The notes under the pieces were generated by a model, which searched no databases, was not told the origin of the DNA, and saw nothing but the letters and a program-made list of their open reading frames with translations. Source: Desulfobacteraceae bacterium (GTDB lineage Bacteria > Desulfobacterota > Desulfobacteria > Desulfobacterales > JACKCP01). Taken from it: 64,000 bases of DNA. Where the stretch lies: contig JACKCP010000006.1 of NCBI GenBank assembly GCA_020633955.1, positions 34,404-98,403 of the forward strand. Reading direction: 5' to 3'. The position numbers and the translations under genes are program-made. Shown piece by piece: positions 20,646 through 41,134 of the stretch. Position 1 is the first letter of the stretch, and each line of letters starts with the position of its first letter.

Positions 20646-20801
20646 CGTTTACCTTCAGCCAGAAATTAATCTGCAAAACAAATCAGATATAATCTGGAAA
20701 TGATTGTGAAAAGTTGACAATTAAGTTTGTTTAGGGCAAAAGTAGTAATATATCAATTTCCTTTTCATTGCTCATTACAAAAAATCTCAGGAAGGTTATA
20801 A

Positions 20802-21635: not shown

Positions 21636-21645
21636 CTTTTATAAC

Positions 21646-21720
21646 CTGGATTGATGGGTTTTCAAGTTTGCTGCATATATTGAAAAACTTTAATTTAAAT
21701 TCATAACACCCTCAATTAAG
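21646..21720 (+). repeat. Intergenic repeat family C, copy C2
   Basis: ctggattgatgggttttcaagtttgctgcatatattgaaaaac...cataacaccctcaattaag aligns with 15178-15258. Confidence 0.55.
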
Positions 21721-21758
21721 TAAGGTAAAAATCAAAAAATTAGATATAAGGACTTATT

Positions 21759-22505
21759 GTGGAAAATCTTATTGAAAAAGCCGCCTCAAAAATCAAAAAC
21801 TCAAAACTTACAATTGCACTTACAGGAGCTGGAATTTCTGTTGAAAGCGGAATCCCTCCCTTCAGGGGAAAAGGATCTTTATGGGAAAAATTTGATCCTA
21901 TGAAATACGCTGAAATAAACTATTTTCTTAAAAATCCAAATGAGGTTTGGGAAGTTTTTTTAAAAGACTTTGAAAAAACACTTAAAAAAGCGAAACCAAA
22001 TTCCGGGCACAAAGGGCTTTTTGAATTAGAAAAAAAAGGACTTCTAACTACAATAATAACCCAGAATATTGACGGACTTCACCAAAAAGCAGGCAGTAAC
22101 GATGTTATAGAATTTCATGGTAGTTTTGCCAATTTTTACTGTCTTGAATGCTTTGAAAGAGTAGACATTCAAGGTCTTGATCTTTCCCAGATCCCTCCAA
22201 AATGCAAAAAATGCAATGGCATTTTAAGACCTGACTGTGTTTTTTTCGGAGAAATGATACCTCAAGATGCTCTTGAAAGAGCAAGTATGCTTGCCTCTCA
22301 ATGCGAAGTAGTTATTGTGATTGGAACATCAGCACTTGTTCAGCCAGCAGCATCAATTCCTGTTGTTGCAAAAACATCAAAAGCCTTTGTTATTGAAATT
22401 AACCCTGAACCAACCCCTCTTTCAGATTCAATTGCAGATATTACTCTTTTGGGAGAAGCAGGCAGTGTAATAACAGATCTGTTAATAGAACTTGAGACAT
22501 TTTAA
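21759..22505 (+). CDS. cobB: NAD-dependent protein deacylase (Sir2 family)
   Basis: Motifs GAGISVESGIPPFRG and TQNIDGLH, plus the zinc ribbon CLEC...CKKC. The GTG start has AAGGA 5 nt upstream. Confidence 0.9.
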   Translation: MENLIEKAASKIKNSKLTIALTGAGISVESGIPPFRGKGSLWEKFDPMKYAEINYFLKNPNEVWEVFLKDFEKTLKKAKPNSGHKGLFELEKKGLLTTIITQNIDGLHQKAGSNDVIEFHGSFANFYCLECFERVDIQGLDLSQIPPKCKKCNGILRPDCVFFGEMIPQDALERASMLASQCEVVIVIGTSALVQPAASIPVVAKTSKAFVIEINPEPTPLSDSIADITLLGEAGSVITDLLIELETF

Positions 22506-22524
22506 ATTACAATTATCATAAAAA

Positions 22525-22557
22525 GGCCGGAAAATAAAAAATCTATTTTATCCGGCC
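22525..22557. terminator. Hairpin between convergent genes, possibly a bidirectional terminator
   Basis: ggccgga / tccggcc is a 7-bp GC-rich stem with a 19-nt A/T loop and A/T-rich flanks on both sides. Confidence 0.4.
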
Positions 22558-22623
22558 ATTATATAAAATCACAAAAAAATGTTAATCAAGGTTGTTTTCG
22601 CTCGTCAAATAATTTGTAGTTTT

Positions 22624-24321
22624 TCACTTTAAAACAAATAATGAAATATATTTTGCATCAATATTTTTCAAATCAACAGCTCCAAGCTCTTCCTCAACCT
22701 GCACGAAAAGCTCATCAAATACTTTTCCAAGTCTTTCAAGAAGATGTTCCGGATTTATTTCGGTAATTCTTACAATCCAGTTTAAAAAGTCCTGCTTTTT
22801 TTCTTTTCCAGGAGTTTTTATACCCTTATCTTCAACCCACAGCCATTGATAAAATTTTCTGAAGTCTTTAATTTCAATGGGTTGAAAAACATTATCATCA
22901 AGGTGAAGCCAGTCCCTTGCCCAAAGAGTCAAAATAAAATTCTGCCAGTTTATGAAAATGTCATCTGTTGTTATTTCTTTTACTCCCATAAGACCGAGAA
23001 GATCATCAACAGCAGATATTTTTTCCAGTTCTTTTTGAGTATTCATTATTTCATCTATTGAAGAAAAATCTTTGTACAGGCTGGATGAATTTTCATAATT
23101 ATCAAAATAAACAGCAGGCCATGCCAGAAGCCCACCGGTTATTCCAAACCATTTTTCTCCAAGAAAACTTAAATTAAGTGAATTTTTTAAAATAAATGAA
23201 TTACTTTGCCATTTCAGAACTTTTTCCCTCAAGTTTCTGACAAGGGTGTTTCCAGCCTTAAAAATATCCATAACATGATAACTTGACAGAACTGATTCCA
23301 TATATTTTTTTTCACTTGTTTTTTCAGTAAAACCGCCAAGATACTGGGAACCAATTTTCAGCAGCCCTGATATACGCTTCACAAGTCGTGAAAGATCCTC
23401 CCTTGTTCTGATTTTTTTATTTTCAGCAGAAATTATCTGATTAAATAAAGAGACAAATTCAAGGGAAAAATCATCTGGATTGAGCAGATAATTATTTACT
23501 GAAAAAATATCAATTACCTGGCTCGAATTTATATCTCCTTTCTCATCAACAAAAATATTATCAAAAGAGCTGTTTTTTGCTGATCTTTTTTTAATATTTT
23601 TCAAATTTACCGGAGCCAAAACTTCAACTGCTTCATGGGATGGAATAATTCCTTTTTCCTCGAGTCTTGCATTTCTGAACCTGAAAAGGTGTTCCTGGTG
23701 CTCGGCGTTTATTACACCGGCGGAAATAAATAAAATAGTCTGAAAATCCCTGTATGACCTGTCTGCAATCCTTCCAAGAATATCATAAACAAGGCTGTTT
23801 ATTTCAATTGGAAGATTCTTGTCTTCCGCAGATTCAAGAACTTTAAAATAAATAACATCATCAAATGTAACAAAATCATCTGGAATTTCAGAAGGATCCT
23901 GGTCATGCTCACGTAAGACTACATCAATTCTGTTTCTTAAAAAATATGTCAGAAAATCTTCCTGATCATCAAGAAGCCAGTCTGAAAGCCTTTTGGGATC
24001 TGCCATATGAAGCACTCCAAGCCAGTAAGAAGCAGTTGATATATTTATTTCATCCTTTTCCCAGATTTCAAGGTCTACAATATATTCCCACTGTTTTTTG
24101 CTGGCCATGGATAAAATCGGCAGAAAATCTTCGTGCCCGGCTTCATGCATGAGCATGTAAAGGGATTGTTCCGGGAAAGAATGAACAAGAGCGTAACTTT
24201 CATTATGGTCAAGAATCTCTTCTATAGCCCTGGCAGGATCCATTTTAAGAATTGATTCCCTTTTTTTCCTTAAAGCTTCAATTTTTTTTTCAACAATGTT
24301 CAAAGCATTTTTTTCCGTCAT
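22624..24321 (-). CDS. Conserved-looking hypothetical protein, 565 aa, no recognisable catalytic motif
   Basis: Long uninterrupted ORF with coding-like composition. I could not identify any motif. Confidence 0.6.
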   Translation of the reverse strand: MTEKNALNIVEKKIEALRKKRESILKMDPARAIEEILDHNESYALVHSFPEQSLYMLMHEAGHEDFLPILSMASKKQWEYIVDLEIWEKDEINISTASYWLGVLHMADPKRLSDWLLDDQEDFLTYFLRNRIDVVLREHDQDPSEIPDDFVTFDDVIYFKVLESAEDKNLPIEINSLVYDILGRIADRSYRDFQTILFISAGVINAEHQEHLFRFRNARLEEKGIIPSHEAVEVLAPVNLKNIKKRSAKNSSFDNIFVDEKGDINSSQVIDIFSVNNYLLNPDDFSLEFVSLFNQIISAENKKIRTREDLSRLVKRISGLLKIGSQYLGGFTEKTSEKKYMESVLSSYHVMDIFKAGNTLVRNLREKVLKWQSNSFILKNSLNLSFLGEKWFGITGGLLAWPAVYFDNYENSSSLYKDFSSIDEIMNTQKELEKISAVDDLLGLMGVKEITTDDIFINWQNFILTLWARDWLHLDDNVFQPIEIKDFRKFYQWLWVEDKGIKTPGKEKKQDFLNWIVRITEINPEHLLERLGKVFDELFVQVEEELGAVDLKNIDAKYISLFVLK

Positions 24322-24400
24322 AATTTCCCCGTATATTCTTTAAAAAGCAGAAACAGGTCATTTTATAATGACCTGCTCCACAATACGACCAAAAGCAATT

Positions 24401-24985
24401 TTAAATCAAAAGGTCATTCAGCTTTATTTTTGGCACATGATGAATATTTTCACTGTCCCGATAATATTTTATAACTCCCGACTCATTTACATCTTCAATT
24501 ATACATTTTTCCGCAGGCTTTCCAATGGCAATTACAAGAACCGGCTCAAAATTTTCATCTATTTCAAAGTCCTTTACAAGATTATTTTTGTTGAATGAAG
24601 CAATCATGCATCCTCCAAATCCCTTTGAAACAGCATCAAGCAAAATTGTCTGTGCACTTATCCCTGCATCAAACATATAATGATTTCCTATTGAGGAAAG
24701 ATCCCTCAACATGATTATATATCCACCAGGCCTGTTACCTTTTTCAGGCCCTTCAAAATCTTTAAGATAGGCTGCCCATGAAAGACTTTTAAAAAGGATT
24801 TCCTTTTCCTTCTGATCAAAAACAAGCCTGTAGCGTAAAGGCTGAAGATTTCCAGCTGAAGCAGTATGCCTTGCCGTAAAAACAAGTTCCTTTAAAAATT
24901 CTTCAGTCAGGGAAGCACTTTCATCAAATTTTCTGTATGACCTGTTTTTAATCACAAGGTCAAAAAAACTGTCTACCTCTGGCAT
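24401..24985 (-). CDS. Nitroreductase-family protein
   Basis: NRSYRKFDE near the N-terminus, ARHTASAGNLQP, and a typical ~190-aa size. It overlaps the rdgB stop by 13 nt. Confidence 0.75.
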   Translation of the reverse strand: MPEVDSFFDLVIKNRSYRKFDESASLTEEFLKELVFTARHTASAGNLQPLRYRLVFDQKEKEILFKSLSWAAYLKDFEGPEKGNRPGGYIIMLRDLSSIGNHYMFDAGISAQTILLDAVSKGFGGCMIASFNKNNLVKDFEIDENFEPVLVIAIGKPAEKCIIEDVNESGVIKYYRDSENIHHVPKIKLNDLLI

Positions 24986-25617
24986 TCGAACTTCTCCTGT
25001 CTGGGAAGATTCTGTTCAAGCCATAAAAGGACTTTATCTATTTCTTTTTTTATTTCACCAAGTGCCCTTCCCCTGTGGCTTACCTCTGATTTTTCATCCA
25101 TTGAAAGTTCTGCAAATGTTTTATTGAACTCTGGATAAAAAAATACAGGGTCATAACCAAAACCGCCTTCACCTTTTGGCTCTCTTGTTATAAATCCTTC
25201 ACATTTACCTTCATATGTAAGTGCGGGGCCTGTTGGAACAGCAATTGAAATTACACACTCAAAAAAGGCATCTCTTTCCTCAATCCCATTCATTTCATTT
25301 AAAAGTTTTTTTACATTTTCTTCATCTGTTGCATTCTCACCTGCATATCTTGCAGAATGAACTCCGGGCCTTCCGCCAAGGGCCTTTACAACAAGACCTG
25401 AATCATCTGAAAGAGCCGGAAAGCCAAGATATCTTGCTGTAAGGCTTGCTTTTTTATAGGCGTTGTCATCAAAGGTTTCACCGTCTTCAATTATTTCTGG
25501 AATGGGACCAAAATCCTCAAGTGTCATAATTTTAACAGGATATCCTTCAAGCAGTTTTGCCATTTCTTTTTTTTTGCCCTGATTTTTTGTGGCAAGTACA
25601 ATTATCTGTTCTTTCAT
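24973..25617 (-). CDS. rdgB: dITP/XTP pyrophosphatase (RdgB/HAM1 family)
   Basis: Motifs ATKNQGKKKEM, SDDSGL, GFGYDPVF and SHRGRA. I place the start at the ATG at 25617, with GGAG 7 nt upstream; the track ORF starts 8 codons earlier. Confidence 0.88.
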   Translation of the reverse strand: MKEQIIVLATKNQGKKKEMAKLLEGYPVKIMTLEDFGPIPEIIEDGETFDDNAYKKASLTARYLGFPALSDDSGLVVKALGGRPGVHSARYAGENATDEENVKKLLNEMNGIEERDAFFECVISIAVPTGPALTYEGKCEGFITREPKGEGGFGYDPVFFYPEFNKTFAELSMDEKSEVSHRGRALGEIKKEIDKVLLWLEQNLPRQEKFECQR

Positions 25618-25682
25618 TTTATACTCCGAATTTATATTCATTAAAAATGGTCATCAAATCTAACAGTTAAACAATATAAATA

Positions 25683-27236
25683 TCAACCTTCAATTTTCAA
25701 ACTTTTTCCAGCCTTTAAAACAAGAAAAAGTACAGGAATTCCAAGAACTGCAGTTATCAGAAAAAAAATCTGATATCCGGCATAATCAACAATTGTTCCT
25801 GAGTACCCGCCGAAAAGTTTTGGAATTAAAGTCATAAGAGAACTGAACACTGCGTATTGCACAGCGGTAAATTTTACGCTTGTCAGAGCAGACAAAAAAG
25901 CAACAAAGGCTGCTCCTGCAAGTCCTGCAGCGAGATTATCTGCTGAAATTACAACGTAAAGCATTAAGGTATTGTGTCCAAGATGTGCTAAAACCATAAA
26001 CAAAAGATTTGTTACAGCTGAAAAAAAAGCTCCCCAGAATAAAATTTTAACAACCCCTTTTTTCTGAGAAAAAATTCCTCCTAAAAACCCTCCAGCTATT
26101 GTCATAAAAAGTCCGAATGTTTTAACAATTCCTGCAATTTCAGTTTTTGTAAAACCAAGATCCTGATAAAAAAGATTTGATACAACACCTAAAACTATAT
26201 CTGAAATTCTATAAAGACCAATGAGCATAAGAAGAAGGATTGCAGTATTTTTTGTGTATCTTGTAAAAAAATCCTTAACAGGCTCAATATATGTATGTTC
26301 TATCATTTGCTGATTAACAAGCCTGGTTTTACCTGAAGTATATGCCAGAAAAAAACCGGCACAAAGCGAAATTGCAAGCCGAAGTGATGCAGTAATAAAA
26401 CCGCTTAAATATTTAAAAAAAATAATATTATTCAAAAAATCAGATAAAAATTCAAAAATAGAGCCGGTAAAATAAAATACTGATACAAATCCGCATATTC
26501 CAATGACAAAAGCTACAAAGGCTCCTAGATAATCTTTTGATTCATATTTATAATTTTTCTCTGAATAAACGTCTGGCTCCTTTATTAGAAGTACTGTAAA
26601 AACTCCGGTAAACATAAAAATACTCATAAACAGATAAGTAAACATCCACGCATTGTAATTATAATGTCCCATCCCTGAACCGAGAAAATCAGCCATGAAA
26701 AGAGCTCCTGCTCCGGCTGTAAGCATTCCTATCCTGTAGCCTGCAATATAAGAAGATGCCATCATTGCCTGAAGACTTAAATGTGCAGACTCAATTCTGT
26801 AAGCATCAATTACAATATCCTGGGTCGCCGATGAAAAACCAAGCAAAACGGCTGCAAAAGCCATTAGATAAACATTTGAATCTCCTTTTGAAGGATCTGT
26901 CAGTGCCATCAATATTATTGATAAAATAACCATAAACTGGGAAAAGAGAATCCATCCTCGCCTTCGGCCAAGTTTTCTGGAAAGAAAAAACACAGGTATA
27001 ACATCTACAGCAGGAGCCCAGATGAATTTAAATGAATAACCAAGAGCAGCCCAGCTGAAAAAGGTTACGGCAGATCTTTCAACCCCTGCTTCCCTGAGCC
27101 ACAAAGAAAGGGATGAAAAAATCAAAAGAATTGGAAGTCCGGCTGAAAACCCGAAAAAAAACATTGTTATTACTCTTTTGTGGAAAAAAGAAAGAAAGAC
27201 CTCTTTCCATGACTTATTTTTTTGCTGATTATACAT
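25683..27236 (-). CDS. ampG: AmpG-family MFS permease (muropeptide transporter-like)
   Basis: 517-aa polytopic protein. The N-terminal FFGFSAGLPILLIFSSLSLWLREAGV and the RRRGWIL loop are typical of AmpG/PAT-family MFS proteins. Confidence 0.72.
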   Translation of the reverse strand: MYNQQKNKSWKEVFLSFFHKRVITMFFFGFSAGLPILLIFSSLSLWLREAGVERSAVTFFSWAALGYSFKFIWAPAVDVIPVFFLSRKLGRRRGWILFSQFMVILSIILMALTDPSKGDSNVYLMAFAAVLLGFSSATQDIVIDAYRIESAHLSLQAMMASSYIAGYRIGMLTAGAGALFMADFLGSGMGHYNYNAWMFTYLFMSIFMFTGVFTVLLIKEPDVYSEKNYKYESKDYLGAFVAFVIGICGFVSVFYFTGSIFEFLSDFLNNIIFFKYLSGFITASLRLAISLCAGFFLAYTSGKTRLVNQQMIEHTYIEPVKDFFTRYTKNTAILLLMLIGLYRISDIVLGVVSNLFYQDLGFTKTEIAGIVKTFGLFMTIAGGFLGGIFSQKKGVVKILFWGAFFSAVTNLLFMVLAHLGHNTLMLYVVISADNLAAGLAGAAFVAFLSALTSVKFTAVQYAVFSSLMTLIPKLFGGYSGTIVDYAGYQIFFLITAVLGIPVLFLVLKAGKSLKIEG

Positions 27237-27358
27237 ATTTATCCTTAATTTTAGTCAAAAAAAAATGTATACTATTGACTGCTTGGAAATTAAATTTCTA
27301 ACTCTTAATAATAGCGGCAAAAAAGGCATAGTTTTATTTCTGAGACCTTTATAAATTT

Positions 27359-27525
27359 GTAACTGTTCAGTTCAATTTAGAGCGGCTGCTCCATTCTTTC
27401 TGAGCCTCATTCTCGCTTTGCTCCGAGGCAGGAGATAAAAAAACTATCTCCTGAAACCGGCTCAGAAAAAATACAGCATCCCTGGCCAAAACGGCTTTTT
27501 CTCAGTTTTTAAGCTGAATAGTTAC
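27359..27525 (+). mobile_element. Hairpin MITE family A, copy A5 (full length, 7/8 TSD)
   Basis: Near-identical to A2. The flanks are ataaattt (27351-27358) and aaaaattt (27526-27533). It lies between divergent ampG and the PAS-Cys4 gene. Confidence 0.88.
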
Positions 27526-27734
27526 AAAAATTTTCAGATAAAACTGTTTTTCTTAACCCCTCAAATCCTGAATTTAAAATTTTAGTACAGATTCTTTCTT
27601 AATTTCAGCTCTAACTATTAAAAACCTTTTTTTCTAAAAATTAATGCTTAGCTTGAAATTGCATAACATTACATATTTATAAATTAAATAACAAAGAAAA
27701 ATATGAGATAACATTAATTCTGCTAAGGAAAAAG

Positions 27735-28388
27735 ATGACTAAAACAATAGAACAAAAAATAGCATCAAATGAAAAAAGATACAGGGTAATTGCCGAGTCT
27801 CTTATTGATAATGTGTGGGTTATAGATGCGGAAACATACAGGTTTTTATATATAAGTACAGATGCATATGAAACAAGGGGATATACCCAAAAGGAACTTA
27901 TAGGCCATACTGCCGATGTCTTTTTTTCAAAAGACTCCTTTGAAAAATTAAAATCACTGGTAAATGAAGCAAAAAATAAATTTCAGACTGGAATTACAAC
28001 CTCACATAAGCTTGAAACTGAAATCATAAAAAAAGATCAAACAACAACCTGGATTGAAATAAGTGCAAAGCTTGTAAAAGATGAAGACGACGGCCGGCTC
28101 AAAATAATTGGTCTTTCAAAGGACATTAATTTAAGAAAGGCTGCTGAAAAAGAAAAGGAAAAAATTCTTTCTGAGCTTGAAACCGCTCTTAAGGAAAAAG
28201 AAAAGCTTTTAGATCAGATAAAAAAGCTTGAAACCCTTTTACCCATTTGTGCTTCCTGCAGAAGAATACGAGATAATTCAGACAAAAAATGGTGGCCTTT
28301 TGAAAAATACATTGAAGAAAAATCAGAGTCAAAGTTCAGCCATACTCTTTGCCCCGACTGCCAGGAAATTCTTTATTCAAAAAAATAA
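27735..28388 (+). CDS. PAS-domain protein with coiled coil and C-terminal Cys4 module
   Basis: PAS domain (ESLIDNVWVIDAETYRFLYIS...), then a KEKEK coiled coil, then LPICASCRRIRDNSDKKWWPFEKYIEEKSESKFSHTLCPDC. This last module is homologous to the C-terminus of the response regulator at 1778-2383. Confidence 0.8.
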   Translation: MTKTIEQKIASNEKRYRVIAESLIDNVWVIDAETYRFLYISTDAYETRGYTQKELIGHTADVFFSKDSFEKLKSLVNEAKNKFQTGITTSHKLETEIIKKDQTTTWIEISAKLVKDEDDGRLKIIGLSKDINLRKAAEKEKEKILSELETALKEKEKLLDQIKKLETLLPICASCRRIRDNSDKKWWPFEKYIEEKSESKFSHTLCPDCQEILYSKK

Positions 28389-28541
28389 CAGCAAAAGCAA
28401 ACTATAAGTTTTAAATATGGAGCAAATTATATCTTTATCATCACTAGAGCATGTTTTTGTGCAGCTTGGTTACATCTCAACGAAACCTGATTCTTTTGTC
28501 CATTCTCAGGAAAAATTTAAGATTAACATAAAATCTGCACT

Positions 28542-29336
28542 TCAAGATCTTCTAACATAGTGTGCAAACTCAACTCCCTGATTAACCAATTCAGACTTTC
28601 CCCTGTTTGTAAGATCTGAAATAAACCTTGTTTGGTGTACTGAATTAACAGGGTATGCCTTGAGCCGATAATGAGTTCCCCAGGGTTTTTCTTTTACAGC
28701 AACATTTACTGAAGAATTGAAAAACAGATATGGACTTGTCAAGGCAACATCTTCAAGTATTTCAATAATTTTATCACTGTCATGGCGATGATCCACATAA
28801 AAATCTGCTGTACACTGAAGCCTTGGTTCTCCATTATTTGAATTAATAACAGGCTGATTCCAGAGAGTGGAATGAGGAATCATGACTCTGTCATCATCAA
28901 GTGTTATAACTTCAACAGTCCTCATCCCCACGTTGTATACTTCTCCATATATGTCACCAACTCTTATCCAGTCTCCATTCCTGTAATTTCTTTCTCCAAC
29001 AGCAACAATTCCTGCAATAAGACTGCTTGCATAATCCTTTAATGCAAAACCAATCGCAAGACCTGCTGTACCAAAAAGAGCAAACATGTTCTCAAATGAT
29101 GGCTCAATTACAATAGGCAGAATAAACATAAAAGAGACAATGATAAGAAAAAGCCTTGCAAAAGGAACCAGAGCAAGAGTTGTAAGCTTTTTCTGACCAT
29201 GAAGACGCTTACTGATCCATCTTAATCCATTCTGAACCCCAGAAATAATCATTAGAGATACAATAACAATTATTACAATTTCAATAATTGTCCACATATC
29301 TATTGTCTTAAAAACATGAAAAGCCTTATTTTCCAT
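28542..29336 (-). CDS. Small-conductance mechanosensitive channel (MscS family)
   Basis: Three N-terminal TM segments, then GTAGLAIGFALKDYASSLIAGI, then the beta-domain GDWIRVGDIYGEVYNVGMRTVEVITLDDDRVMIPHS. Confidence 0.82.
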   Translation of the reverse strand: MENKAFHVFKTIDMWTIIEIVIIVIVSLMIISGVQNGLRWISKRLHGQKKLTTLALVPFARLFLIIVSFMFILPIVIEPSFENMFALFGTAGLAIGFALKDYASSLIAGIVAVGERNYRNGDWIRVGDIYGEVYNVGMRTVEVITLDDDRVMIPHSTLWNQPVINSNNGEPRLQCTADFYVDHRHDSDKIIEILEDVALTSPYLFFNSSVNVAVKEKPWGTHYRLKAYPVNSVHQTRFISDLTNRGKSELVNQGVEFAHYVRRS

Positions 29337-29357
29337 ATTTTATTCCATTACATGCAG

Positions 29358-30551
29358 TTAGAATTTATCTACAAGATAATCCCTTTCAAAAAAAAGCTTT
29401 CTCACTTTAAAAAAAGCAGATTCAGATACACTGAGCTCATTATTTCTTTTTTTTAAAAAGCCAGAATTTAAGAGATCCAAAATCATATTTTTACAGCTAG
29501 ATTTTGAAAATGGAAGAATTTTTATAAGAATATCATGAGAAATACTCCCATGAAGCATAATTGTATGAAGAATAATTACGGACTCATCTCCAGGTACTGA
29601 TGAAAAAACCGGTTCAGAAATATCAGGAATAACCCAGATAAGAGTTTCATTTAATCCTTTTTTAACAGAGGGAATCAAGTCATTGTGACCTGAGCTGTTA
29701 TTTTCCAGACGAAGACTGTCTTTCCAGAATTTTAAAGAGAGAAAAATATTTCCTCTGCAATAAGCAGCAATTTTTGTAATTAATGGATCTGCAGCTTCAT
29801 TTTTTGAGACGGTCCCTCCTATTTTCCTGCCGTTTGAAATATTTAAAAATTTGAATTTTGTATAACTTGCCCCACCTGAAGAAGCAGCAATCATTCTGAT
29901 TAATTTTTCACCGTCAAAAGACTGTAAGGTTATTGAATTTTTTAAAGGGAGTTTCAAAACCATCTGGAGATAAGCCCATGGAAAACTATGGCACCCGATA
30001 ACTCCCTTTCCAAGCTCACCATTTTCTGCCAAATGCAGTAATTTTCTGATTTTTTTCAATCCATTCACATGACGGATAAAATATTTTTCAAGCTCCGGTA
30101 TTACCCATATTCTGCCCTCTTCAGGAAGATTAAAAGAAAGTTTATCAAAATCAGAAAAAATGTCTTCACTGGATGGAGGGGAAATAACACATGCATCGTT
30201 ATTTTCTGCCCATAACCTTAATATTTCGGAATTTTTAGAACAGTGCTGTCCTACAACATAAGTCACATAATTTTTTGTATCATGATTTTCAAGCCAGCCT
30301 TCAAGGCACTCTCCCAACGCATCTGATAAATCCTTTAAATTAACGTCAGGTGCAACAAATTTTTCAAGCCTGTCAGGAAGGACAAACAAGTCCTGCTCAC
30401 TGCCTTTGAACATTTCTTCATGCTTGTTATTATTGAAAGCAAAAAAATTTTTTAGGGATTTAAATGTATTTTCAGCCAGACTTACTGTAGGTATTGGAGG
30501 AATGCAATAGTTTCCAATGGGAACATATTCATAAATATTTCCTTGTTTCAT
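29358..30551 (-). CDS. Hypothetical protein, 397 aa; possibly a degenerate P-loop-like fold plus a C-terminal winged-helix-like region
   Basis: Uninterrupted ORF 21 nt upstream of the MscS gene. VVGQHCSKNS and RIWVIPELE look like decayed Walker A/B motifs, judged by eye only. Confidence 0.55.
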   Translation of the reverse strand: MKQGNIYEYVPIGNYCIPPIPTVSLAENTFKSLKNFFAFNNNKHEEMFKGSEQDLFVLPDRLEKFVAPDVNLKDLSDALGECLEGWLENHDTKNYVTYVVGQHCSKNSEILRLWAENNDACVISPPSSEDIFSDFDKLSFNLPEEGRIWVIPELEKYFIRHVNGLKKIRKLLHLAENGELGKGVIGCHSFPWAYLQMVLKLPLKNSITLQSFDGEKLIRMIAASSGGASYTKFKFLNISNGRKIGGTVSKNEAADPLITKIAAYCRGNIFLSLKFWKDSLRLENNSSGHNDLIPSVKKGLNETLIWVIPDISEPVFSSVPGDESVIILHTIMLHGSISHDILIKILPFSKSSCKNMILDLLNSGFLKKRNNELSVSESAFFKVRKLFFERDYLVDKF

Positions 30552-30586
30552 GACTTTTCCTAATATAATTGCTTAATCAAAACTGT

Positions 30587-30710
30587 CTTTTTTGCCAATT
30601 TCGACGTAAGATTCAAAATTTAATCTTCAAAATACTCCATTTATTCCTGCTGTTAGATTTGGCTTCTTCCATAAATGAACAAAAAATTCCAGTTTTTGGC
30701 CAGTCATTAT
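30587..30710 (-). repeat. Intergenic repeat family B, copy B1 (mini-ORF on the minus strand, 30640-30620)
   Basis: The minus strand reads ...AGGAATAAATGGAGTATTTTGAAGATTAAATTTTGAATC... This copy lies in the 5' region of the 397-aa gene, whose start is at 30551 on the same strand. Confidence 0.7.
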
Positions 30711-30871
30711 TGTTTTAAAACAAATCAATTAAATTGGAAAATAAAATTCCAATTTAGGTTGAGAGTTTTTTGGAAATTAAGTAATTAAATCTTTACACAA
30801 AAAAACCTCATGTTATATGACAGTATTCAGTATTTTAATTAAAACAACTTAAAAGAGCAGGGAAGAAAACA

Positions 30872-32725
30872 ATGCATAAACTTTTACAGGGTGAACCCGA
30901 AAGCAGACACTTCCTACTTGGAAATGAAGCTATTGCAAGAGGTGCTATTGAAGCAGGAGTTGCATTTGCTACAACCTATCCTGGCACACCATCATCTGAA
31001 ATTTCCGCAAACCTGTTTGAAATTTCAAAGGAAACTGATCTTTATTTTGAGTACAGCTCAAATGAAAAAATAGCATTGGAGCTTGCATCTGCATCAGCAA
31101 ACTCAGGGCTTAGAACTCTTTGCCTGATGAAACATGTTGGAGTAAACGTTGCGGCCGATGTTCTTATGACTCTTGCATATCTTGGAGTTAAAAAAGGTCT
31201 TGTCCTTCTTACAGCAGATGATCCGTTCATGTTCTCAAGTCAGAATGAACAGGATAACAGATATTATGGAAGACTTGCCGGGATTCCTGTTCTTGAGCCT
31301 TCTTCAGTAGACGAGGCAAAGGAAATGATTAAATATGCCTTCGATCTTTCAGAGCAGCTCAATGAACCTGTTATTTTCAGAACAACAACAAGGGTTAACC
31401 ATTCTTCTGGAATAGTTGAATTCAAAGACATTGCTGCTCCTCAAACAAAGGGAGAATTCATCAAGGATCCGATGAATTACGTTTCTGTACCAGCAGTATC
31501 AAGAAAAAGACATAAGGTCTTACTGGACAACCTTGAAAAAGCTGCAACAATTTCAGACTCATGCTCATATAATTTTATTAAGGGAAAAGGCAGTCTTGGA
31601 ATTATTTGTAATGGAGTTAGTTACTCATATGTATGCGACTCACTGAAAGACCTTGGAATTGAAGACAAGGTAAAAATACTTAGACCAGGTCTTTCCCATC
31701 CAATGCCTGATGCTCTCATAAAAGAATTTTTGAAAGACACTGAAAAAGTTCTTGTGGTTGAAGAAGGTGAACCTATCATGGAGGAATATGTACGTTCAGT
31801 TGCACAGACAGAAAAAATAGCATGTGAAATTAAGGGTAAACACAAAGACCTTTTATCAAGGCTTTATGAGTTTAATCCATCAATAGTAAGAAGCGCTGTT
31901 GCTAATTTTTTCGGATTTGAAAACAAAAGTGCAAAGCCTGTAGATACTTCAGATCTTCCTGTTTTACCAAACAGACCTCCAAACCTTTGTGCAGGATGCT
32001 CCCATAGAGCAGTTTTTTATGCTGCAAAAAAAGCAGGCGGAGCTGAAACACTTTACCCTTCAGATATTGGATGCTACACACTTGGATTCCTTCCTCCAGT
32101 AGGAATGGGTGATTTTGTTCTGTGCATGGGAGCCTCAATTGGTACTGCATGCGGTTTTTCAAAAAGCACAGGAAAAAACACACTTGCCTTTATAGGAGAT
32201 TCAACTTTTTTCCATTCAGGAATTAACGGCCTTTTAAATGCAGTTTTCAATAATCATGATATTACAGTTGTAATTCTTGACAACCGAACAACAGCAATGA
32301 CAGGTCATCAGCCAAATCCGGGTGTTGACATGACAGAGCTTGGATTTGAAAACTACAATCAGATAGATATTGAAGCTGTAGTAAAAAGTCTTGGGGTTGG
32401 ATATGTTCAGACTGTAAAACCATACAATATCAGAAAAACCCAGGAAGCCATTGAAGAGGCAATGAAATTTAAAGGAGTTTCAGTTGTTATTGCCAAGGAA
32501 AAATGTGTTCTTTACGCCAAGCAGCTAGGTCAGGGTAAAAAGACCGTATTCCAGGTTAATCAGGATAAATGCAAAAACCACAGAAACTGTGTGAACGACC
32601 TTGGATGTCCCGCATTTTACATAGAAAATGACCAGGTCAATATTAACCCTGATATGTGTACAGGCTGTTCGGTCTGTGCCCAGATTTGCCCTGAAAATGC
32701 AATATCTCCGGTAAAAATCAAATAA
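30872..32725 (+). CDS. iorA: Indolepyruvate:ferredoxin oxidoreductase, alpha subunit
   Basis: N-terminal LLGNEAIARGAIEAGVAFATTYPGTPSSEI, the TPP motif GDSTFFHSG, and a C-terminal ferredoxin-like CxxCxxCxxxCP (CTGCSVCAQICPENAI). The 617-aa size is typical and the gene is followed by iorB. Confidence 0.9.
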   Translation: MHKLLQGEPESRHFLLGNEAIARGAIEAGVAFATTYPGTPSSEISANLFEISKETDLYFEYSSNEKIALELASASANSGLRTLCLMKHVGVNVAADVLMTLAYLGVKKGLVLLTADDPFMFSSQNEQDNRYYGRLAGIPVLEPSSVDEAKEMIKYAFDLSEQLNEPVIFRTTTRVNHSSGIVEFKDIAAPQTKGEFIKDPMNYVSVPAVSRKRHKVLLDNLEKAATISDSCSYNFIKGKGSLGIICNGVSYSYVCDSLKDLGIEDKVKILRPGLSHPMPDALIKEFLKDTEKVLVVEEGEPIMEEYVRSVAQTEKIACEIKGKHKDLLSRLYEFNPSIVRSAVANFFGFENKSAKPVDTSDLPVLPNRPPNLCAGCSHRAVFYAAKKAGGAETLYPSDIGCYTLGFLPPVGMGDFVLCMGASIGTACGFSKSTGKNTLAFIGDSTFFHSGINGLLNAVFNNHDITVVILDNRTTAMTGHQPNPGVDMTELGFENYNQIDIEAVVKSLGVGYVQTVKPYNIRKTQEAIEEAMKFKGVSVVIAKEKCVLYAKQLGQGKKTVFQVNQDKCKNHRNCVNDLGCPAFYIENDQVNINPDMCTGCSVCAQICPENAISPVKIK

Positions 32726-32744
32726 AAACACAAGGATAAATACC

Positions 32745-33347
32745 ATGAGCAATATAACTAAACTTATAATAGTTGCAGTAGGCGGACAGGGAAACCTTCT
32801 TGCCTCAAAAATTCTTGGAGAAGCAGCTCTTGATGCCGGAATTCAGGTTCAGATGAGTGAGATTCACGGAATGGCACAAAGAGGAGGAGTTGTAGAATCT
32901 TCCATCCTTTTTGGTGATGCAAAAAGCTCAATAATTGCAGACGGAGAAGCAGATATTCTTCTTGGATTTGAGCCTCTTGAATCATTAAGGGCTGTTGCAA
33001 AGTGCAACAAGAACACGGAAATAATTACAAATATGAGACCTCTACAGCCTTTTACGTCGGCAATAGGTCTTGCGAAATATCCTGAAACAGAAGAAATTGA
33101 AAAACTGTTAAAGGCAAAGTCAAAAAACTTCCTTGGATTCGATGCAACAAAACTTGCAATTGAAGCTGGAACTTCACTTAGTCTTAACATGGTTTTGCTT
33201 GGTGCCCTTGCACAAAGAAATCTTATACCCATAGGAAAAGATCTTATTGAAAAAACAATAAGGGAAAAAACCAAGAAGCAATTTGCAGAAACCAACCTTA
33301 AGGCTTTTAATGCAGGATTTGATAAAGCTTTGGAACTTGGGGTATAA
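32745..33347 (+). CDS. iorB: Indolepyruvate:ferredoxin oxidoreductase, beta subunit
   Basis: 200 aa, with the VGGQGNLLASKILGEAAL motif typical of 2-oxoacid:ferredoxin oxidoreductase gamma/IorB domains. It lies immediately downstream of iorA. Confidence 0.88.
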   Translation: MSNITKLIIVAVGGQGNLLASKILGEAALDAGIQVQMSEIHGMAQRGGVVESSILFGDAKSSIIADGEADILLGFEPLESLRAVAKCNKNTEIITNMRPLQPFTSAIGLAKYPETEEIEKLLKAKSKNFLGFDATKLAIEAGTSLSLNMVLLGALAQRNLIPIGKDLIEKTIREKTKKQFAETNLKAFNAGFDKALELGV

Positions 33348-33348
33348 A

Positions 33349-34833
33349 GTGAAAAAAACAACAGGAATCATATATTCAATTCTGATTTGTTTATTTTTTC
33401 CGTTGTATGTTTTTTCAGGAGAAAAAACACCTGTTTATATTGAAAAGTTTAAAATTCATTCTTCTGATAAGAATGATGAATATATTTCAGAGGGTATCAA
33501 TTCTGTTCTTACGGGATTGATATCCCCCATAAACGGGATAAAAATAAGCGAAGAATATAAAAATGAGGGTTTTATAATTTCAGGAAGCATTGTAATAATA
33601 GACAACTCTTCCATTACATCGGCATCTTTAAAATACAATAAGCAAATTCTGGAGTCATTTAACAAAAAAAACGAAAAAAAATCTGATATTTTAAATAATA
33701 TCAATGATTTTGCTTTAATATGCAAAAAAATAATCGAAAATAAAGCCGTTAATCAAAAACCTCAGATGCCTTTAAATGAAATTAAACCTTCATATAATGA
33801 AACCCAGATGGAAATACTTTTTGTAAGCAATCCAATTACAGAAGAGATTAAAAGTATTTCATGTATTGATATAAACAATGATAAAAAAAAAGAGTTAGCC
33901 TGGATTACAGAAAAAAAACTCACAATTTCTTCCTTTTTGAACAATGAACTTGATGTGATTTCTTCAGTTGATATCCCAACTGAACTAACTCCTCTTTCAC
34001 TGGAGTCCCTGAAAATCCGCGGAACTGAAATGCTGATTGCAAACCTGTTTGATGATAAGGCAAAAAACTTCAAAGCAAGACTTTATTATTTTGATGACAA
34101 ATCAAAAATGCTTATGGAAGATAAAAGCTTTCCAGACAATTATTTTTACAAATCTTCATATTCAGTTTCCGGTGAAAAATTCATAATTGCCAGAAAAGGT
34201 GATAATTTCAAAACAAGCCTTTTCAGAGGGAATATCAAGATACTTGATTCAAAAGATTTCAGCTTTAAGGACATGGAAATTCAAAAAGAGTTTGAATTTT
34301 TTCCCTCACTAGTAACAGGCAATTATACAAAAAATGATGGAAAAGAATGGGTAAGCCTTGATTCAAAAGGTTCAATAACAATTTTTACAAGTAATTTTGA
34401 TAAGGTTTTTGAAACTGATTCAGCCTTTGGCGGTTCGGTTACTTATGCAAATTACGAAACCAAGGGAAGAGATGAAATTGATTCAAGATATTTTTTCCCA
34501 ACCAGATTAATTCCTGTTCTTATGGGAAATGGAAAAACCATGCTTTTGACCATAAAAAACAAAGATGGAGGAAGCAGACTGCTCCAACGGCTAAGATTTT
34601 TTAAGGAAGGTTCAATCAGCGGTCTTATGTGGGATAAAATTTCATTTGAAGAATTTTTTTCATCACGAATATTCAAAGGATGGATATCTGATTTCCAGAT
34701 CTGTGATATTGATATGGACGGCAGAAAAGAAATAATTATTGCAAACCCCCAAAAAGCAAAGAGTTTTACTAAAAATCCTGAAACCAGAATTATTATTATC
34801 CCCTTTGAAAAAAGCCTTTCAGATAATAAGTAA
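33349..34833 (+). CDS. Secreted or membrane-anchored hypothetical protein with FG-GAP/VCBS-like motif
   Basis: I place the start at the GTG at 33349 (VKKTTGIIYSILICLFFPLYVFSG, signal-like), 1 nt after the iorB stop. The track ORF start at 33283 overlaps iorB. The Ca-binding-like motif CDIDMDGRKEIIIAN lies near the C-terminus. Confidence 0.6.
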   Translation: MKKTTGIIYSILICLFFPLYVFSGEKTPVYIEKFKIHSSDKNDEYISEGINSVLTGLISPINGIKISEEYKNEGFIISGSIVIIDNSSITSASLKYNKQILESFNKKNEKKSDILNNINDFALICKKIIENKAVNQKPQMPLNEIKPSYNETQMEILFVSNPITEEIKSISCIDINNDKKKELAWITEKKLTISSFLNNELDVISSVDIPTELTPLSLESLKIRGTEMLIANLFDDKAKNFKARLYYFDDKSKMLMEDKSFPDNYFYKSSYSVSGEKFIIARKGDNFKTSLFRGNIKILDSKDFSFKDMEIQKEFEFFPSLVTGNYTKNDGKEWVSLDSKGSITIFTSNFDKVFETDSAFGGSVTYANYETKGRDEIDSRYFFPTRLIPVLMGNGKTMLLTIKNKDGGSRLLQRLRFFKEGSISGLMWDKISFEEFFSSRIFKGWISDFQICDIDMDGRKEIIIANPQKAKSFTKNPETRIIIIPFEKSLSDNK

Positions 34834-34854
34834 TTTTTTGGAAAACAAAAGCTT

Positions 34855-34960
34855 GTTTCATTTACGACGATTCAAAATTTAACCGTAGAAATACATTAAG
34901 TATTTTGAGGATTAAATTTTGAATCAGGCTTTCAATGGACTAAAAAATTTTGGTTAAACC
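34855..34960 (+). repeat. Intergenic repeat family B, degenerate copy B4 with head-to-head core duplication (hairpin)
   Basis: gattcaaaatttaacc (34869-34884) and ggattaaattttgaatc (34909-34925) are inverted. The right arm aligns with the B core, but the mini-ORF start is lost (ATT AAG TAT TTT GAG GAT TAA). Confidence 0.5.
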
Positions 34961-35108
34961 TCAAATTTAAAAAACCTCCGGTTTAGATATTAATAAAATG
35001 TTTTATAATTACCAATTATGAAAACAAAACAAAAAATTCAAATAAAGTCATATTTTTAAAATAAATCAGTATATATCACTATATATCAATAGATTCAGCA
35101 ATATTTCA

Positions 35109-35191
35109 TTGACAATTTGTTACCATTAACTATTTAATATCTGTTGAAAAACTAATTTTTGTTTGACAGACAGATTAATATTCAATAAATT
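35109..35191 (+). promoter_or_regulatory. Two tandem sigma-70-like promoter candidates in a very AT-rich 490-bp intergenic region
   Basis: TTGACA (35109-35114) - 16 nt - TATTTA (35131-35136), and TTGACA (35163-35168) - 17 nt - TAAATT (35186-35191). Both lie upstream of the ORF starting at 35326. Confidence 0.35.
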
Positions 35192-35325
35192 ACGCAAATA
35201 TTAAGATGAGAGTTTTCTAAGAGGGGGAATTAATAACCATCTTAATTGTTTTTTATTTAACAATGATTATTTATTAAATAAATAATACAAAAAAACCCCA
35301 AAAAAGGGAGTAAGGACTTAACGTT

Positions 35326-35940
35326 ATGAATGAATTCCTTCAGCATTTAAGAGCAACAAGTAATGATCGAAGAAGAAACAATAAAAACTATAAAAACAAT
35401 GATGGAAACATAGGTAATCACCATCCCGAAAGAAGAAGCGGGAATGACAGAAGACTCAGAGCGCCCAAGCCATCAGGCATAAAAGAAGAAGCAATAACTG
35501 CATTGAGACAATCAATTGATGAAATTCAAAATGCCGTTCAGGATCATATCCTTGTACTGGAAAGAAATACTGACGCACAGGAAAGACAGGCTGAAGCTCT
35601 TGAACATATAGCAGATATGTTTGCAGTTTTTCTTGAAAGACTTGATGATGCTCCAGCAGTACACCAGGAAGCTATTCCAAGGGAAGCAGAAATTCTTGAT
35701 GAAAGTAACCTGATGATGAGTGCCGAGGAAGCTGACCAGGTAAAAAAGACAAGCAGGACATATATTCTTAATTTAATCCAGAGTCTCAGAGACAAAAACT
35801 CAACCTATGATGAAATTGCTCTTTATCTTACAGAAAATGACTTCCCTACTTTTTCAGGAAGAGGAAGATGGCACGCACAAACCATCCACAGACTCTGTCA
35901 GGAAATTAAAAAAGCCAAAGCAAAAAAAATGAGACATTAA
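35326..35940 (+). CDS. Hypothetical protein, 204 aa: Arg/Asn-rich N-terminus, acidic helical centre, C-terminal recombinase-like helix-turn-helix
   Basis: GGGAG lies 13 nt upstream of the ATG, so this RBS is weakly placed. The C-terminal STYDEIALYLTENDFPTFSGRGRWHAQTIHRLC resembles, by eye, the LN..G.PT..G..W....V..IL pattern of the serine-recombinase 'Recombinase' domain. Confidence 0.6.
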   Translation: MNEFLQHLRATSNDRRRNNKNYKNNDGNIGNHHPERRSGNDRRLRAPKPSGIKEEAITALRQSIDEIQNAVQDHILVLERNTDAQERQAEALEHIADMFAVFLERLDDAPAVHQEAIPREAEILDESNLMMSAEEADQVKKTSRTYILNLIQSLRDKNSTYDEIALYLTENDFPTFSGRGRWHAQTIHRLCQEIKKAKAKKMRH

Positions 35941-35997
35941 AAACCATAGTTTTCTTAAAGGCAGGAATAACCCTGCCTTATCCAAACCACAAAAAAA

Positions 35998-36276
35998 TTA
36001 TCTCTTAATCTGTGAAAGGTATTCACCCCATTCCATAGGAAGAAGATTTTTCTTTTTATTATTGCATTCTTTGCATGAACATACCAGATTTCCCTTTGTG
36101 CTTTTTCCGCCTCTTGACATGGGAACAACATGATCCATTGTAAGATCTTCAGGTAAAAATGAATTTCCGCAATAAAAACAAACTCCCTTGGAAAGTTTAC
36201 GTTTCCACCATTGACTGTTTCTCAGCTCCCTGGCCTTTGACTTTTCCTTTTTAATATCCTTATCATCAACAAACAT
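35998..36276 (-). CDS. Small stand-alone HNH endonuclease-family protein (92 aa)
   Basis: CFYCGNSF...DHVVPMSRGG...NLVCSCKECNNKK shows the HNH fold with two Cys pairs. The ATG at 36276 directly abuts the era stop codon at 36277-36279. Confidence 0.85.
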   Translation of the reverse strand: MFVDDKDIKKEKSKARELRNSQWWKRKLSKGVCFYCGNSFLPEDLTMDHVVPMSRGGKSTKGNLVCSCKECNNKKKNLLPMEWGEYLSQIKR

Positions 36277-37191
36277 TTATTCTATTCCATACTCCTTGAA
36301 AACTCCCGGTTTCTTAGTCCAGTTTTTATGGACTCTTACAAAAAGATGGAGAACGACCTTTTTCCCTGTAAATTCCTCAATTTCAAGCCTTGACTGAGTA
36401 CCAATTTCTTTAAGCATTGAGCCTTTTTTGCCAATCACAATCCCTTTTTGTGATTCCCTCTCAATATTAATGTTTGCATAAATTTCTATCTGCCTTGATG
36501 ATTCCTTGAATTTATCTATTGTAACTGCCGCTGAATAAGGTATTTCATGGTGTGTAAGATTAAAAACCTTCTCCCGTATAATTTCTGAAACAAAAAATTT
36601 CATAGGCATATCTGTCAAAAAGTCTTCAGGATAAAATGGTGGTGAAAAAGGTAATCTCTGCTCAATTATCGGGATCAGCCTGTCCAGATTATCACCGTTT
36701 ACAGCTGAAATTGGAATAATATCTTCAAAATCAAGCTTTCCCTTCCATTCAGCGATAGAATCAAGGATATCTTCCTTAACCTTGACCTCATCAGCCTTGT
36801 TCAAGAGAAGTATCACCTTTTTATCTACAGACTTGAGTTTTTCGACAATCATTTCATCATCAGGATTTTTATTTAAAAGATCCACGACATATAAAATCAA
36901 GTCGGCTTCTTCAGAGGCTTCAATTGCTTTTTCAACAATCTTTTTGTTCATTATTTTTTCAGATGAATGAATTCCCGGAGTATCAAGAAAAACAATCTGG
37001 GAGTTTTCATTGTTTATCACAGCAAGAATTTTATTTCTGGTTGTCTGAGGCTTATCAGCTGTTATAGCTAACTTTTCACCACAAATACGGTTTAGGAGGG
37101 TTGATTTGCCAACATTTGGTGTTCCAATAATTGAAACATAGCCTGCCCTGAAATCTATTTTACCCTTGAACAAAAAATCTGAATCAATCAT
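36277..37191 (-). CDS. era: GTPase Era
   Basis: G1 motif GTPNVGKSTLLN, G3 motif DTPGI, G4 motif NKAD, and a C-terminal KH domain (GIVIGKKGSMLKEIG). Confidence 0.95.
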   Translation of the reverse strand: MIDSDFLFKGKIDFRAGYVSIIGTPNVGKSTLLNRICGEKLAITADKPQTTRNKILAVINNENSQIVFLDTPGIHSSEKIMNKKIVEKAIEASEEADLILYVVDLLNKNPDDEMIVEKLKSVDKKVILLLNKADEVKVKEDILDSIAEWKGKLDFEDIIPISAVNGDNLDRLIPIIEQRLPFSPPFYPEDFLTDMPMKFFVSEIIREKVFNLTHHEIPYSAAVTIDKFKESSRQIEIYANINIERESQKGIVIGKKGSMLKEIGTQSRLEIEEFTGKKVVLHLFVRVHKNWTKKPGVFKEYGIE

Positions 37192-37804
37192 TTAAAACTC
37201 CTGCATATTTTAATATTTTCCCCCAGACTTTTTCTCTGCCGGTCCCTTTTATACCTGAAGCAGTTAGAAACAAATCTTCATCAAAATTTAATTTTGAAGC
37301 TATCTTTTTCCTCTGGGCAATCTGCTTTGTCTTAGAAAGTTTATCCGCCTTTGTCAGAACATTTATATAATTGATTTTGTTCTGACCAAGCCATAATGCA
37401 AAATTGTGCTCGAACTCCGCAACATCCCTTCTGATATCCATTATCCAGACAAGACAGCAAAGATTACTTCTTGTCAAAAGATAATCCTCAATCATCTTTT
37501 CCCACTCTGCTCTCATTTTTTTAGAAACCTTTGCATACCCGTATCCAGGCAGGTCTACAAATCTTAAAAGATTATTAACCTCAAAAAAATTTATTCTCTG
37601 GGTTCTTCCAGGAGTATTACTGGTTTTGACAAGCTTTTTTCTGTTTACAAGGCAGTTAATAAGAGTTGACTTTCCAACATTTGATCTTCCAGCAAATGCA
37701 ATCTCTGGAAGTGTACCATCTGGATACTCTTTTTTGCTGCCAGCACTTGTCAAAAATTCAGCAGTTTTTATTACATAGCTGTTCTTCTCGTTCTGAGATT
37801 CCAT
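37184..37804 (-). CDS. engB: Ribosome-biogenesis GTPase EngB/YsxC
   Basis: Motifs GRSNVGKSTLIN, DLPGYGYA and TKADK. It overlaps the era start by 8 nt. Confidence 0.92.
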   Translation of the reverse strand: MESQNEKNSYVIKTAEFLTSAGSKKEYPDGTLPEIAFAGRSNVGKSTLINCLVNRKKLVKTSNTPGRTQRINFFEVNNLLRFVDLPGYGYAKVSKKMRAEWEKMIEDYLLTRSNLCCLVWIMDIRRDVAEFEHNFALWLGQNKINYINVLTKADKLSKTKQIAQRKKIASKLNFDEDLFLTASGIKGTGREKVWGKILKYAGVLND

Positions 37805-37806
37805 AT

Positions 37807-38190
37807 TTATTTATATACCTTTTCTGGATCAAAAACTTTTTCTGCAATCACTACAGGATCTCCGGTTTTAACAGAAGTATGAAAACATGAATTATAACCT
37901 TTGTGACAGGCAGCTCCCTTTTGTTCTACCAAAAGAAGTATTGTGTCATTGTCACAGTCAATCAGTATATCAGAAACAGTCTGTATATGCCCCGAACTTT
38001 CTCCTTTAACCCATAATTTATTTCTAGATCTTGAAAAATAGGTAGCCTGTTTTGTACGAAGAGTCTCATCAAAAGCTTCTTTATTCATGTATGCTAGCAT
38101 CAAAACCTCTTTTGTTGTCTTGTCCTGTGTAATAACAGGAACAAGTCCGTTTTGCTTTTCAAAATCAACAAACAGTTTTTCTTCACCCAT
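37807..38190 (-). CDS. hisI: Phosphoribosyl-AMP cyclohydrolase
   Basis: 127 aa, with [20 protein letters not shown] and [26 protein letters not shown]. Confidence 0.9.
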
Positions 38191-38499
38191 CAGATCTCCT
38201 TTGCTTAAAAAATATTTAAGTCGCTGAACAAAAATATTTTTTTCTGACCATTATAAAATAATATTTAAAATCAAATCCTAAAAAACTCAATCCATGGTAA
38301 ATTTTTTGTTCCGACTGAAACAAAGTCATGGTTTCAGACCAGTCAATATTTAATTTACCCAAATCCTTAATTCCTTTATTATAAAGTCCGATACATACTC
38401 CACAGCACAGGCTGTCAAGTTGATATTGCCTTATTATGTTCTATCTGATAGTGATAATCAAAATATTTGAACAAACATTAACTATAAAATAATAAAAAT

Positions 38500-40890: not shown

Positions 40891-40914
40891 AGACTTTGAT
40901 AGTCTTAAAGAATT

Positions 40915-40969: not shown

Positions 40970-41003
40970 AAAGAATTTATCTATTTACTGGCGAACAAAA
41001 AAT

Positions 41004-41124: not shown

Positions 41125-41134
41125 TTAATAAAAA

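Follow-up and report, generated by a model that had tools for sequence, protein, structure and literature searches.

The repeat that recurs between genes in the DNA analyzed here (the window, a stretch of 64,000 nucleotides from a Desulfobacteraceae bacterium) is most probably a member of a previously unnamed family of non-coding MITEs of around 143 bp, of the ERIC/Correia/RUP kind, a reading to which we give a probability of about 0.87. The element is small and carries no transposase gene, it has terminal inverted repeats (TIRs), a target-site duplication is found at its flanks, and many dispersed intergenic copies lie beside unrelated genes. A first-pass annotation had listed "a second MITE" as the last of its possible explanations, and it is this one that the TIRs, the flanking duplication, the intergenic dispersal and the presence or absence of copies between relatives support. 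The six-codon open reading frame (ORF) carried by the best copies is an accident of the hairpin tip, explained by the anatomy of the hairpin and by shared descent. Bacterial MITEs are non-coding and A+T-rich, measure less than 200 bp, and have TIRs, 5'-TA-3' termini and target-site duplications; when transcribed they form RNA stem-loops, and incidental ORFs are frequent in them (PMC2229807; PMC10969869).

The three best copies in the window were confirmed at the positions first assigned to them, where they align over more than 120 nt and are far more alike than expected by chance. An nhmmer profile built from these copies detected them with E values of 5e-41, 1.4e-40 and 2.8e-37, and also found a degenerate copy near 34853 (E = 3.4e-10). 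The 64-kb window contains four exact occurrences of the 20-mer TATTTTGARRATTAAATTTT, and when up to three mismatches were allowed eight matches were obtained against 0.95 expected, a number reached by no shuffle. With a family-wide nhmmer model six copies were detected, around one per 10 kb, three of them degenerate; the hits of this model to the three best copies cover 30569-30706, 40989-41120 and 20527-20660. The initial description of three aligned copies of about 120 bp holds with respect to their existence and similarity, but not with respect to the length of the unit, which is about 143 bp in the family model, and further copies were found in the window. The six putative MITE copies, with their scores under the family model, are:

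30567-30708, minus strand: copy c30, 105 bits, E = 1.4e-30, model columns 1-143, near full length
40986-41122, minus strand: copy c41, 82 bits, E = 2e-23
20522-20663, plus strand: copy c20, 70 bits, E = 1e-19
34842-34955, plus strand: degenerate copy c34, 55 bits, E = 3.9e-15, with ATT AAG in place of ATG GAG and the central 16-bp stem intact
54809-54930, minus strand: degenerate copy c54, 35 bits, E = 6.7e-9, core mutated and without ATG
38220-38345, minus strand: degenerate copy c38, 29 bits, E = 3.8e-7, between hisI and the PBP1A gene

Copy c30 lies in a divergent intergenic region between a 397-aa gene and an IorA-like gene, in such a way that its 3' end is around 15 nt upstream of the start codon of the 397-aa gene. 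Copy c20 is also in a divergent intergenic region, between the genes for an acyl-CoA dehydrogenase and an MBL-fold hydrolase, and c41 is in a convergent one, directly 3' of a radical SAM gene and flanked by TAAGTA and TAAATA. The gene contexts initially given for these copies (two located 5' of genes on the same strand, one 3' of the radical SAM gene) were correct. The genes beside the window copies, which code for an acyl-CoA dehydrogenase, an MBL-fold hydrolase, an IorA-like oxidoreductase, PBP1A, HisI and a radical SAM enzyme, are functionally unrelated.

A second dispersed repeat family, of around 190 nt and with the ends GTAACTGTTCAG...CTGAATAGTTAC, is also present in the window, at 1565-1690, 7553-7740, 15255-15448 (inverted), 16610-16756, 27356-27546 and 60864-60992, and as a fragment at 40934-40978 that abuts c41. 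It is presumably the family that had been described as the "first" one in the earlier annotation, and is probably another MITE.

The six-codon ORF of each of the three best copies, ATG-GAR-TAT-TTT-GAR-RAT-TAA, was confirmed from the sequence, as was the purine-rich AGGA or GGGA upstream of it, at a spacing of 3-4 nt:

30620-30640, minus strand: mini-ORF of c30, ATG GAG TAT TTT GAA GAT TAA, with ATGGA as its apical loop (model columns 70-74), the next G and the rest forming the 3' stem arm
41038-41058, minus strand: mini-ORF of c41, ATG GAG TAT TTT GAG AAT TAA, with the same anatomy
20591-20611, plus strand: mini-ORF of c20, ATG GAA TAT TTT GAA GAT TAA, with the same anatomy

One proposal for these mini-ORFs was that they are translated into a conserved peptide, MEYFE(D/N), which would serve the downstream gene as a leader peptide or attenuator. 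This proposal would account for the fact that the ATG, the frame, the stop codon and the upstream purine stretch are kept in the three copies, and for the variation of only 3 of 21 columns within the mini-ORF against 65 of 122 elsewhere (p = 0.0008). The rest of the family, however, makes it hardly credible. Among 91 copies from about ten Desulfobacterales-type MAGs and metagenome contigs, only seven retain the ATG, six codons and the stop; of these seven, three are in the window itself. At the position of ATG-GAG the most frequent hexamers are ATTTAG (17 copies, in which TAG is a stop at codon 2), ATTGAG (12), CTGGAG (10) and ATGGAG (6). Most of the copies were fetched via a pattern that requires an intact TAT TTT GAR RAT TAA, and the loss of the mini-ORF was seen regardless. 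In the closest relative found, the ortholog of c30, located upstream of the same 397-aa gene, reads ATT TAG, and the fourth copy of the window itself (c34) has ATT, as already noticed for the degenerate copy near 34855-34960. The start codon is thus lost from most copies while the element is kept, which is the pattern that the first-pass annotation had itself named as refuting its proposal.

The substitutions seen in the three best copies do not behave as codon changes either. Three were counted within the 21 nt, two GAG/GAA and one GAT/AAT, and this count is right; all of them, including the two described as synonymous, which are G-to-A changes, sit on three G positions, the sole ones of an otherwise A/T run. 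In the whole family G/C sites differ at 36.6% and A/T sites at 11.8%, in such a way that G/C decays three times faster. No codon-position pattern of substitution was found, the variation being concentrated in the loop and at the G sites; no conservation of start, frame and stop was detected, nor a consistent position and orientation before a regulated class of genes. Moreover, conservation extends around 5 nt beyond the stop codon (ATTTT), and the copies are placed 5', 3' and antisense to unrelated genes. In tandem-gene contexts 23 copies have the orientation of the genes and 14 the opposite one, with no significant bias, so that transcription of all copies in the sense of the mini-ORF, as had been claimed, fits the three named contexts but not the family in general.

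Attenuator leader-peptide ORFs are likewise very short, with a purine-rich stretch upstream, an overlapping stem and, in two of the three copies here, a gene downstream. By contrast, the start codon is not conserved in this family, the downstream genes are unrelated, the orientation is unbiased, and a single symmetric hairpin is found instead of the alternative pairing of terminator and antiterminator. Since the ATG is absent from most copies, the loop is highly variable and the changes fall on fast-decaying G sites, the mini-ORF is not a conserved feature of the element, of which it is nevertheless the longest ORF. The ATGGAG loop variant is common to the three best window copies by descent.

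The element is A+T-rich and measures around 143 bp, or around 145 bp with a TA at each end (143 columns in the family model). Its TIRs are imperfect, with TAGTGATTGGCCGAAAACG at the 5' end and, as reverse complement, TAGTTGCTGAACGAAAACG at the other; a segment with these ends reads TAGTGATTGGCCGAAAACG ... CGTTTTCGTTCAGCAACTA. The symmetry of the TIRs runs on inward, and a long imperfect hairpin can be formed on either strand. The family consensus folds as a single stem-loop over all 143 positions (-47.8 kcal/mol), in which columns 70-74 (ATGGA) make up an apical loop of 5 nt, the "Shine-Dalgarno" AGGA occupies the foot of the 5' arm (columns 62-65), its GGA pairing with the T run of TATTTT, and the body and the stop codon of the mini-ORF are in the 3' arm. 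A quasi-palindrome, GATTAAATTTTGAATC, had been described around the stop codon; the sequence is as reported, but it does not represent a separate palindrome, as it is part of the 3' arm of the whole-element hairpin and pairs with GATGAAAAATTTAACC.

The pairs were counted on the structure of the consensus fold because RNAalifold predicted only seven basal pairs from 60 copies; a local alifold run returned no structure. Standard pairs were found in 91.9% of 3114 pair cells (60 copies), compared with 38-58% when the partners were slid by 1-3 columns. Changes on both sides were detected in 18 pairs, a number reached in 0 of 500 shuffles (9.7 +/- 2.0), and 13 of the 18 are in the outer helix, which corresponds to the TIR region and has 30 pairs with 90.7% of their cells paired. 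Among the window copies, c20 folds as a long hairpin with the ATG in the apical loop (-26.8 kcal/mol, z = -2.6) and c34 has a fold with z = -3.4, and the hairpin has decayed in two of the three best copies (z = +0.36 for c30).

Conservation along the element was measured in a sample free of fetch bias, made of 25 secondary copies in loci that are retrievable through a different copy. At A/T sites, the loop (columns 70-75) differs by 27.8%, being about the most variable region, and columns 60-69 by 33.1%. Lower values were obtained for columns 76-95, which include the body of the ORF and beyond (6.9%), for the 5'-arm partner in columns 49-59 (5.5%), for the outermost TIR segments in columns 1-20, 110-122 and 123-143 (4.9-7.0%), and for the inner TIR segment in columns 21-35 (12.3%). 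A special conservation of the central core throughout the family was considered and rejected on these values, as the core is about as conserved as the outermost TIRs and its 5'-arm partner; the loci in which it had appeared had been fetched by that same 20-mer. In the window only, A/T sites of the core differ at 3.4% against 13.9% outside it, a difference that is not seen in the unbiased sample from other genomes, and the 3'-arm core TATTTTGARRATTAAATTTT is intact in four of six copies that differ at 20-35% of their other positions.

Divergent subfamilies were also observed, represented by L007:4628-4736, L007:1892-2007 and L030:11-119, by L108:7782-7923, L058:5263-5402 and L040:2117-2276, and by L057:6633-6752 and L103:375-498. 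In these three sets (L007/L030, L108/L058/L040 and L057/L103) the central hairpin is kept and both ends have changed together, for example to GAGACCTTTGAAAAA...TTTTTCAAAGGTCTC. Such paired changes may reflect co-evolution with different transposases.

Two properties are not predicted by a purely selfish element, namely the better folding of the sense strand and the better-kept 3'-arm core in the window. The consensus folds at -47.8 kcal/mol in the sense strand and at -33.7 kcal/mol in the antisense, and the sense strand is the more stable one in 61 of 68 copies (Wilcoxon p = 1.3e-11). G.U pairs outnumber A.C in the pairing cells (388 versus 98), in counts that are not independent events because they are common to the copies by descent. 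A structured RNA with a function for the host, or a domesticated MITE, kept by selection rather than by transposition, would explain this asymmetry and the compensatory changes in the 18 pairs. When transcribed in sense it could stabilize mRNA, provide a site for processing by RNase III/E, work in the manner of a terminator or serve as a small RNA, and ERIC and Correia elements have been reported to affect the fate of mRNA in this way (PMC10969869). The similarity of copies between genera (around 80-92% identity, with coding DNA around 70% identical and flanks that cannot be aligned) could be taken in the same sense, and it also fits recent independent bursts or horizontal spread. We consider such selective maintenance quite unlikely, as the orientation relative to genes is unbiased and decay of the hairpin is already seen in two of the three best copies of the window. 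In addition, insertion is shown by the duplications at the flanks, promoter-like and terminator-like sites are not above the counts of shuffles, and Rfam gives no match. It is also rather unlikely, but suggested by the G.U-based sense folding, by the compensatory changes across subfamilies with diverged ends and by the 3'-arm core in the window, that the element is a MITE-borne, strand-specific hairpin module exploited by its hosts, for instance in RNA processing or stability or for the binding of a protein.

The preferred reading, a MITE family that spreads by insertion, is supported by the flanks of the copies. When the alignments were extended to the limits of similarity, the element, running GTGATTGG...CAGCAAC, was seen to have TA-nn-TA on either side. 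Of 49 full-length copies, 34 carry the same nn at both flanks, whereas 8.4 would be expected and none of 2000 shuffles gave more than 18 (TATGTAG in L105, TACTTAG in L029 and TAATTAG in L006 are examples). As the TA dinucleotides are nearly invariant, the duplication is compatible with 2, 4 or 6 bp. These flanks also bear on the possibility of a REP/BIME-like repeat, moved by a RAYT (TnpA-REP) or by a single-strand transposase of the IS200/IS605 type and not by a DDE enzyme. A strand-asymmetric, G.T-tolerant hairpin is what recognition of single-stranded DNA would allow; however, a flanking direct duplication is present, and HUH single-strand transposition (IS200/IS605) is not known to produce one. 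The TIRs with TA termini and the unit of around 143 bp, A+T-rich instead of a 20-40-nt G+C-rich palindrome, also argue against it, and we regard a REP/BIME-like origin as most improbable.

Regarding location, 95 copies were scorable, of which 20 were too near the edge of their locus to have genes on both sides; among the remaining 75, 73 are intergenic and two overlap a long ORF. Comparison with relatives revealed differences in occupancy. Locus L110, whose IorA is 90% identical to that of the window, is syntenic with window positions 30783-43201 (12 kb) and has no copy of the family, so that the sites of c34, c38 and c41 are unoccupied there, in intergenic DNA too diverged for a base-exact empty site; at the c38 locus, L110 has around 190 bp less sequence. 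The closest relative found, L109 (IorA 96% identical, syntenic with window 20785-34753), shares c30 (30567-30708), as its ortholog at 9623-9763, and has copies that are missing from the window. On the other hand, orthologous positions kept between genera (3 of 6 comparable pairs) were discarded as an argument, since by a rough estimate they are not above chance given the locus sampling.

Some further arrangements were observed at these loci. The L109 copy at 9623-9763 is almost the family consensus, while the orthologous c30 differs at around 20% of positions, a contrast that suggests either uneven decay or, in the relative, conversion by active copies. Adjoining this copy, L109:9764-9840 is a 75-nt mini-element with two 3'-type ends in inverted orientation and the flanks TAATTA and TGATTA, which is absent from the orthologous site of the window. 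Double insertions, tandem or head-to-head, with one common TAnnTA were seen at L071:1523-1804, L004 around 6480-6669 and L065:5100-5307, a pattern to be expected where each insertion restores the preferred target. Finally, the same orthologous intergenic site is occupied by this family in L109:6443-6559 and by the other repeat family in window 27251-27617, which suggests an insertion hot spot.

We propose that the element would be mobilized by a DDE-type transposase encoded elsewhere, which would bind both ends and place the element into TA-NN-TA sites of A+T-rich intergenic regions, duplicating at least the two central bases. Inserted copies would then decay through A/T-biased mutation. The mini-ORF is a by-product, in which the ATGGAG loop variant spells ATG and the conserved 3' arm happens to run TAT TTT GAG GAT TAA. 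The 5' end may resemble a Tc1-type end (CAGTGCTGGCCAAAAAG compared with TAGTGATTGGCCGAAAACG).

The candidate transposase was searched for in the sampled sequence. Within 1.38 Mb, no autonomous IS or transposase turned up whose ends match those of the element; the ORFs beside solitary ends in L082, L009 and L104 include no transposase, and those adjoining orphan ends (up to five mismatches) include none that is transposase-like. All-against-all blastp for multicopy ORFs gave a single group, of paralogs around 40-50% identical and not of recent IS copies.

When one genome per species was scanned for the 20-mer, at least 106 loci were obtained, and real copies were found in 67 of them by profile search; the remaining ones (in Prochlorococcus, Bacteroidota and others) do not fit the family profile and were regarded as chance hits to an A/T-rich word. 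Altogether, around 90-100 distinct copies were recovered and aligned. Most of them are in the MAGs Desulforegulaceae BF1_10 (JAVERC01), which accounts for at least 45 of the 8-kb loci listed, and Thermodesulfobacteriota Y23_45dBSd4.bin.16 (JBNJDM01), with further copies in Desulfobacteraceae, Desulfobacterales and Desulfopila MAGs. Desulforegulaceae is a family within the order Desulfobacterales. A copy of the Y23_45dBSd4.bin.16 subtype was also observed in L041 (JBNJGP010000235.1), a 2.5-kb contig binned as Candidatus Muiribacteriota, which may be mis-binned, the Y22/Y23 isolate names being apparently from one study.

Outside these organisms the element had no match in a plasmid collection or, by blastn, in 5,426 E. 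coli genomes. In IMG/VR, 26 loci were collected with a 16-mer of the TIR and the 20-mer of the core, and none of the 26 matches the family model, so they were rejected as chance matches. A search of Rfam, a check proposed along with the initial description, gave no family match for the element: in a scan of the window at the gathering threshold only rRNAs reached the score, and at E <= 1 nothing was found at the element in L013 and L109, two loci with good copies. The rRNA genes of the window are at its end:

61049-61165, minus strand: 5S rRNA
61251-64000, minus strand: most of the 23S rRNA gene

In the literature searched, no description of MITEs in Desulfobacter-type organisms was found. With an architecture like that of ERIC, Correia and RUP, and without a match in these sequence collections, Rfam or the literature searched, the repeat appears as a new family within a known class.

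ERIC (MITEEc1) and YPAL/RU-2 share with it a length of around 127-168 bp, an imperfect palindrome, an intergenic location, one long RNA hairpin when transcribed, a copy number that varies between relatives and frequent incidental short ORFs, and in ERIC also 5'-TA-3' termini and target-site duplications (PMC2229807; PMC10969869). By contrast, there is no sequence similarity to ERIC in the E. coli genomes, the hosts are of the Desulfobacterales type, and the flanking repeat is TA-nn-TA and not a simple TA. The Correia/NEMIS elements of Neisseria and RUP of Streptococcus pneumoniae are also A+T-rich MITEs of around 107-155 bp with TIRs, TA termini, TA-containing targets and many intergenic copies (PMC2229807), and IS630-Spn1 has been proposed to mobilize RUP. 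The family described here differs from them in that a cognate IS was not identified within the 1.38 Mb of sampled sequence, neither an IHF site nor a promoter could be shown, and it is the central dinucleotide between two TAs that is duplicated, a plain TA duplication being insufficient.

For annotation, these data dispose of an attractive false positive, namely a six-codon ORF that seems "conserved" and is preceded by a motif like a Shine-Dalgarno sequence. The element is otherwise an ordinary example of a well-known class, and what is defined here is an apparently unnamed MITE family, with its consensus, its ends and its TA-nn-TA target, which is abundant in Desulforegulaceae-like and other Desulfobacterales-type MAGs. 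Repeats of this sort break metagenome assemblies and can mislead binning, as exemplified by the copy on the short contig binned as Muiribacteriota, and they may perturb the expression of neighboring genes.
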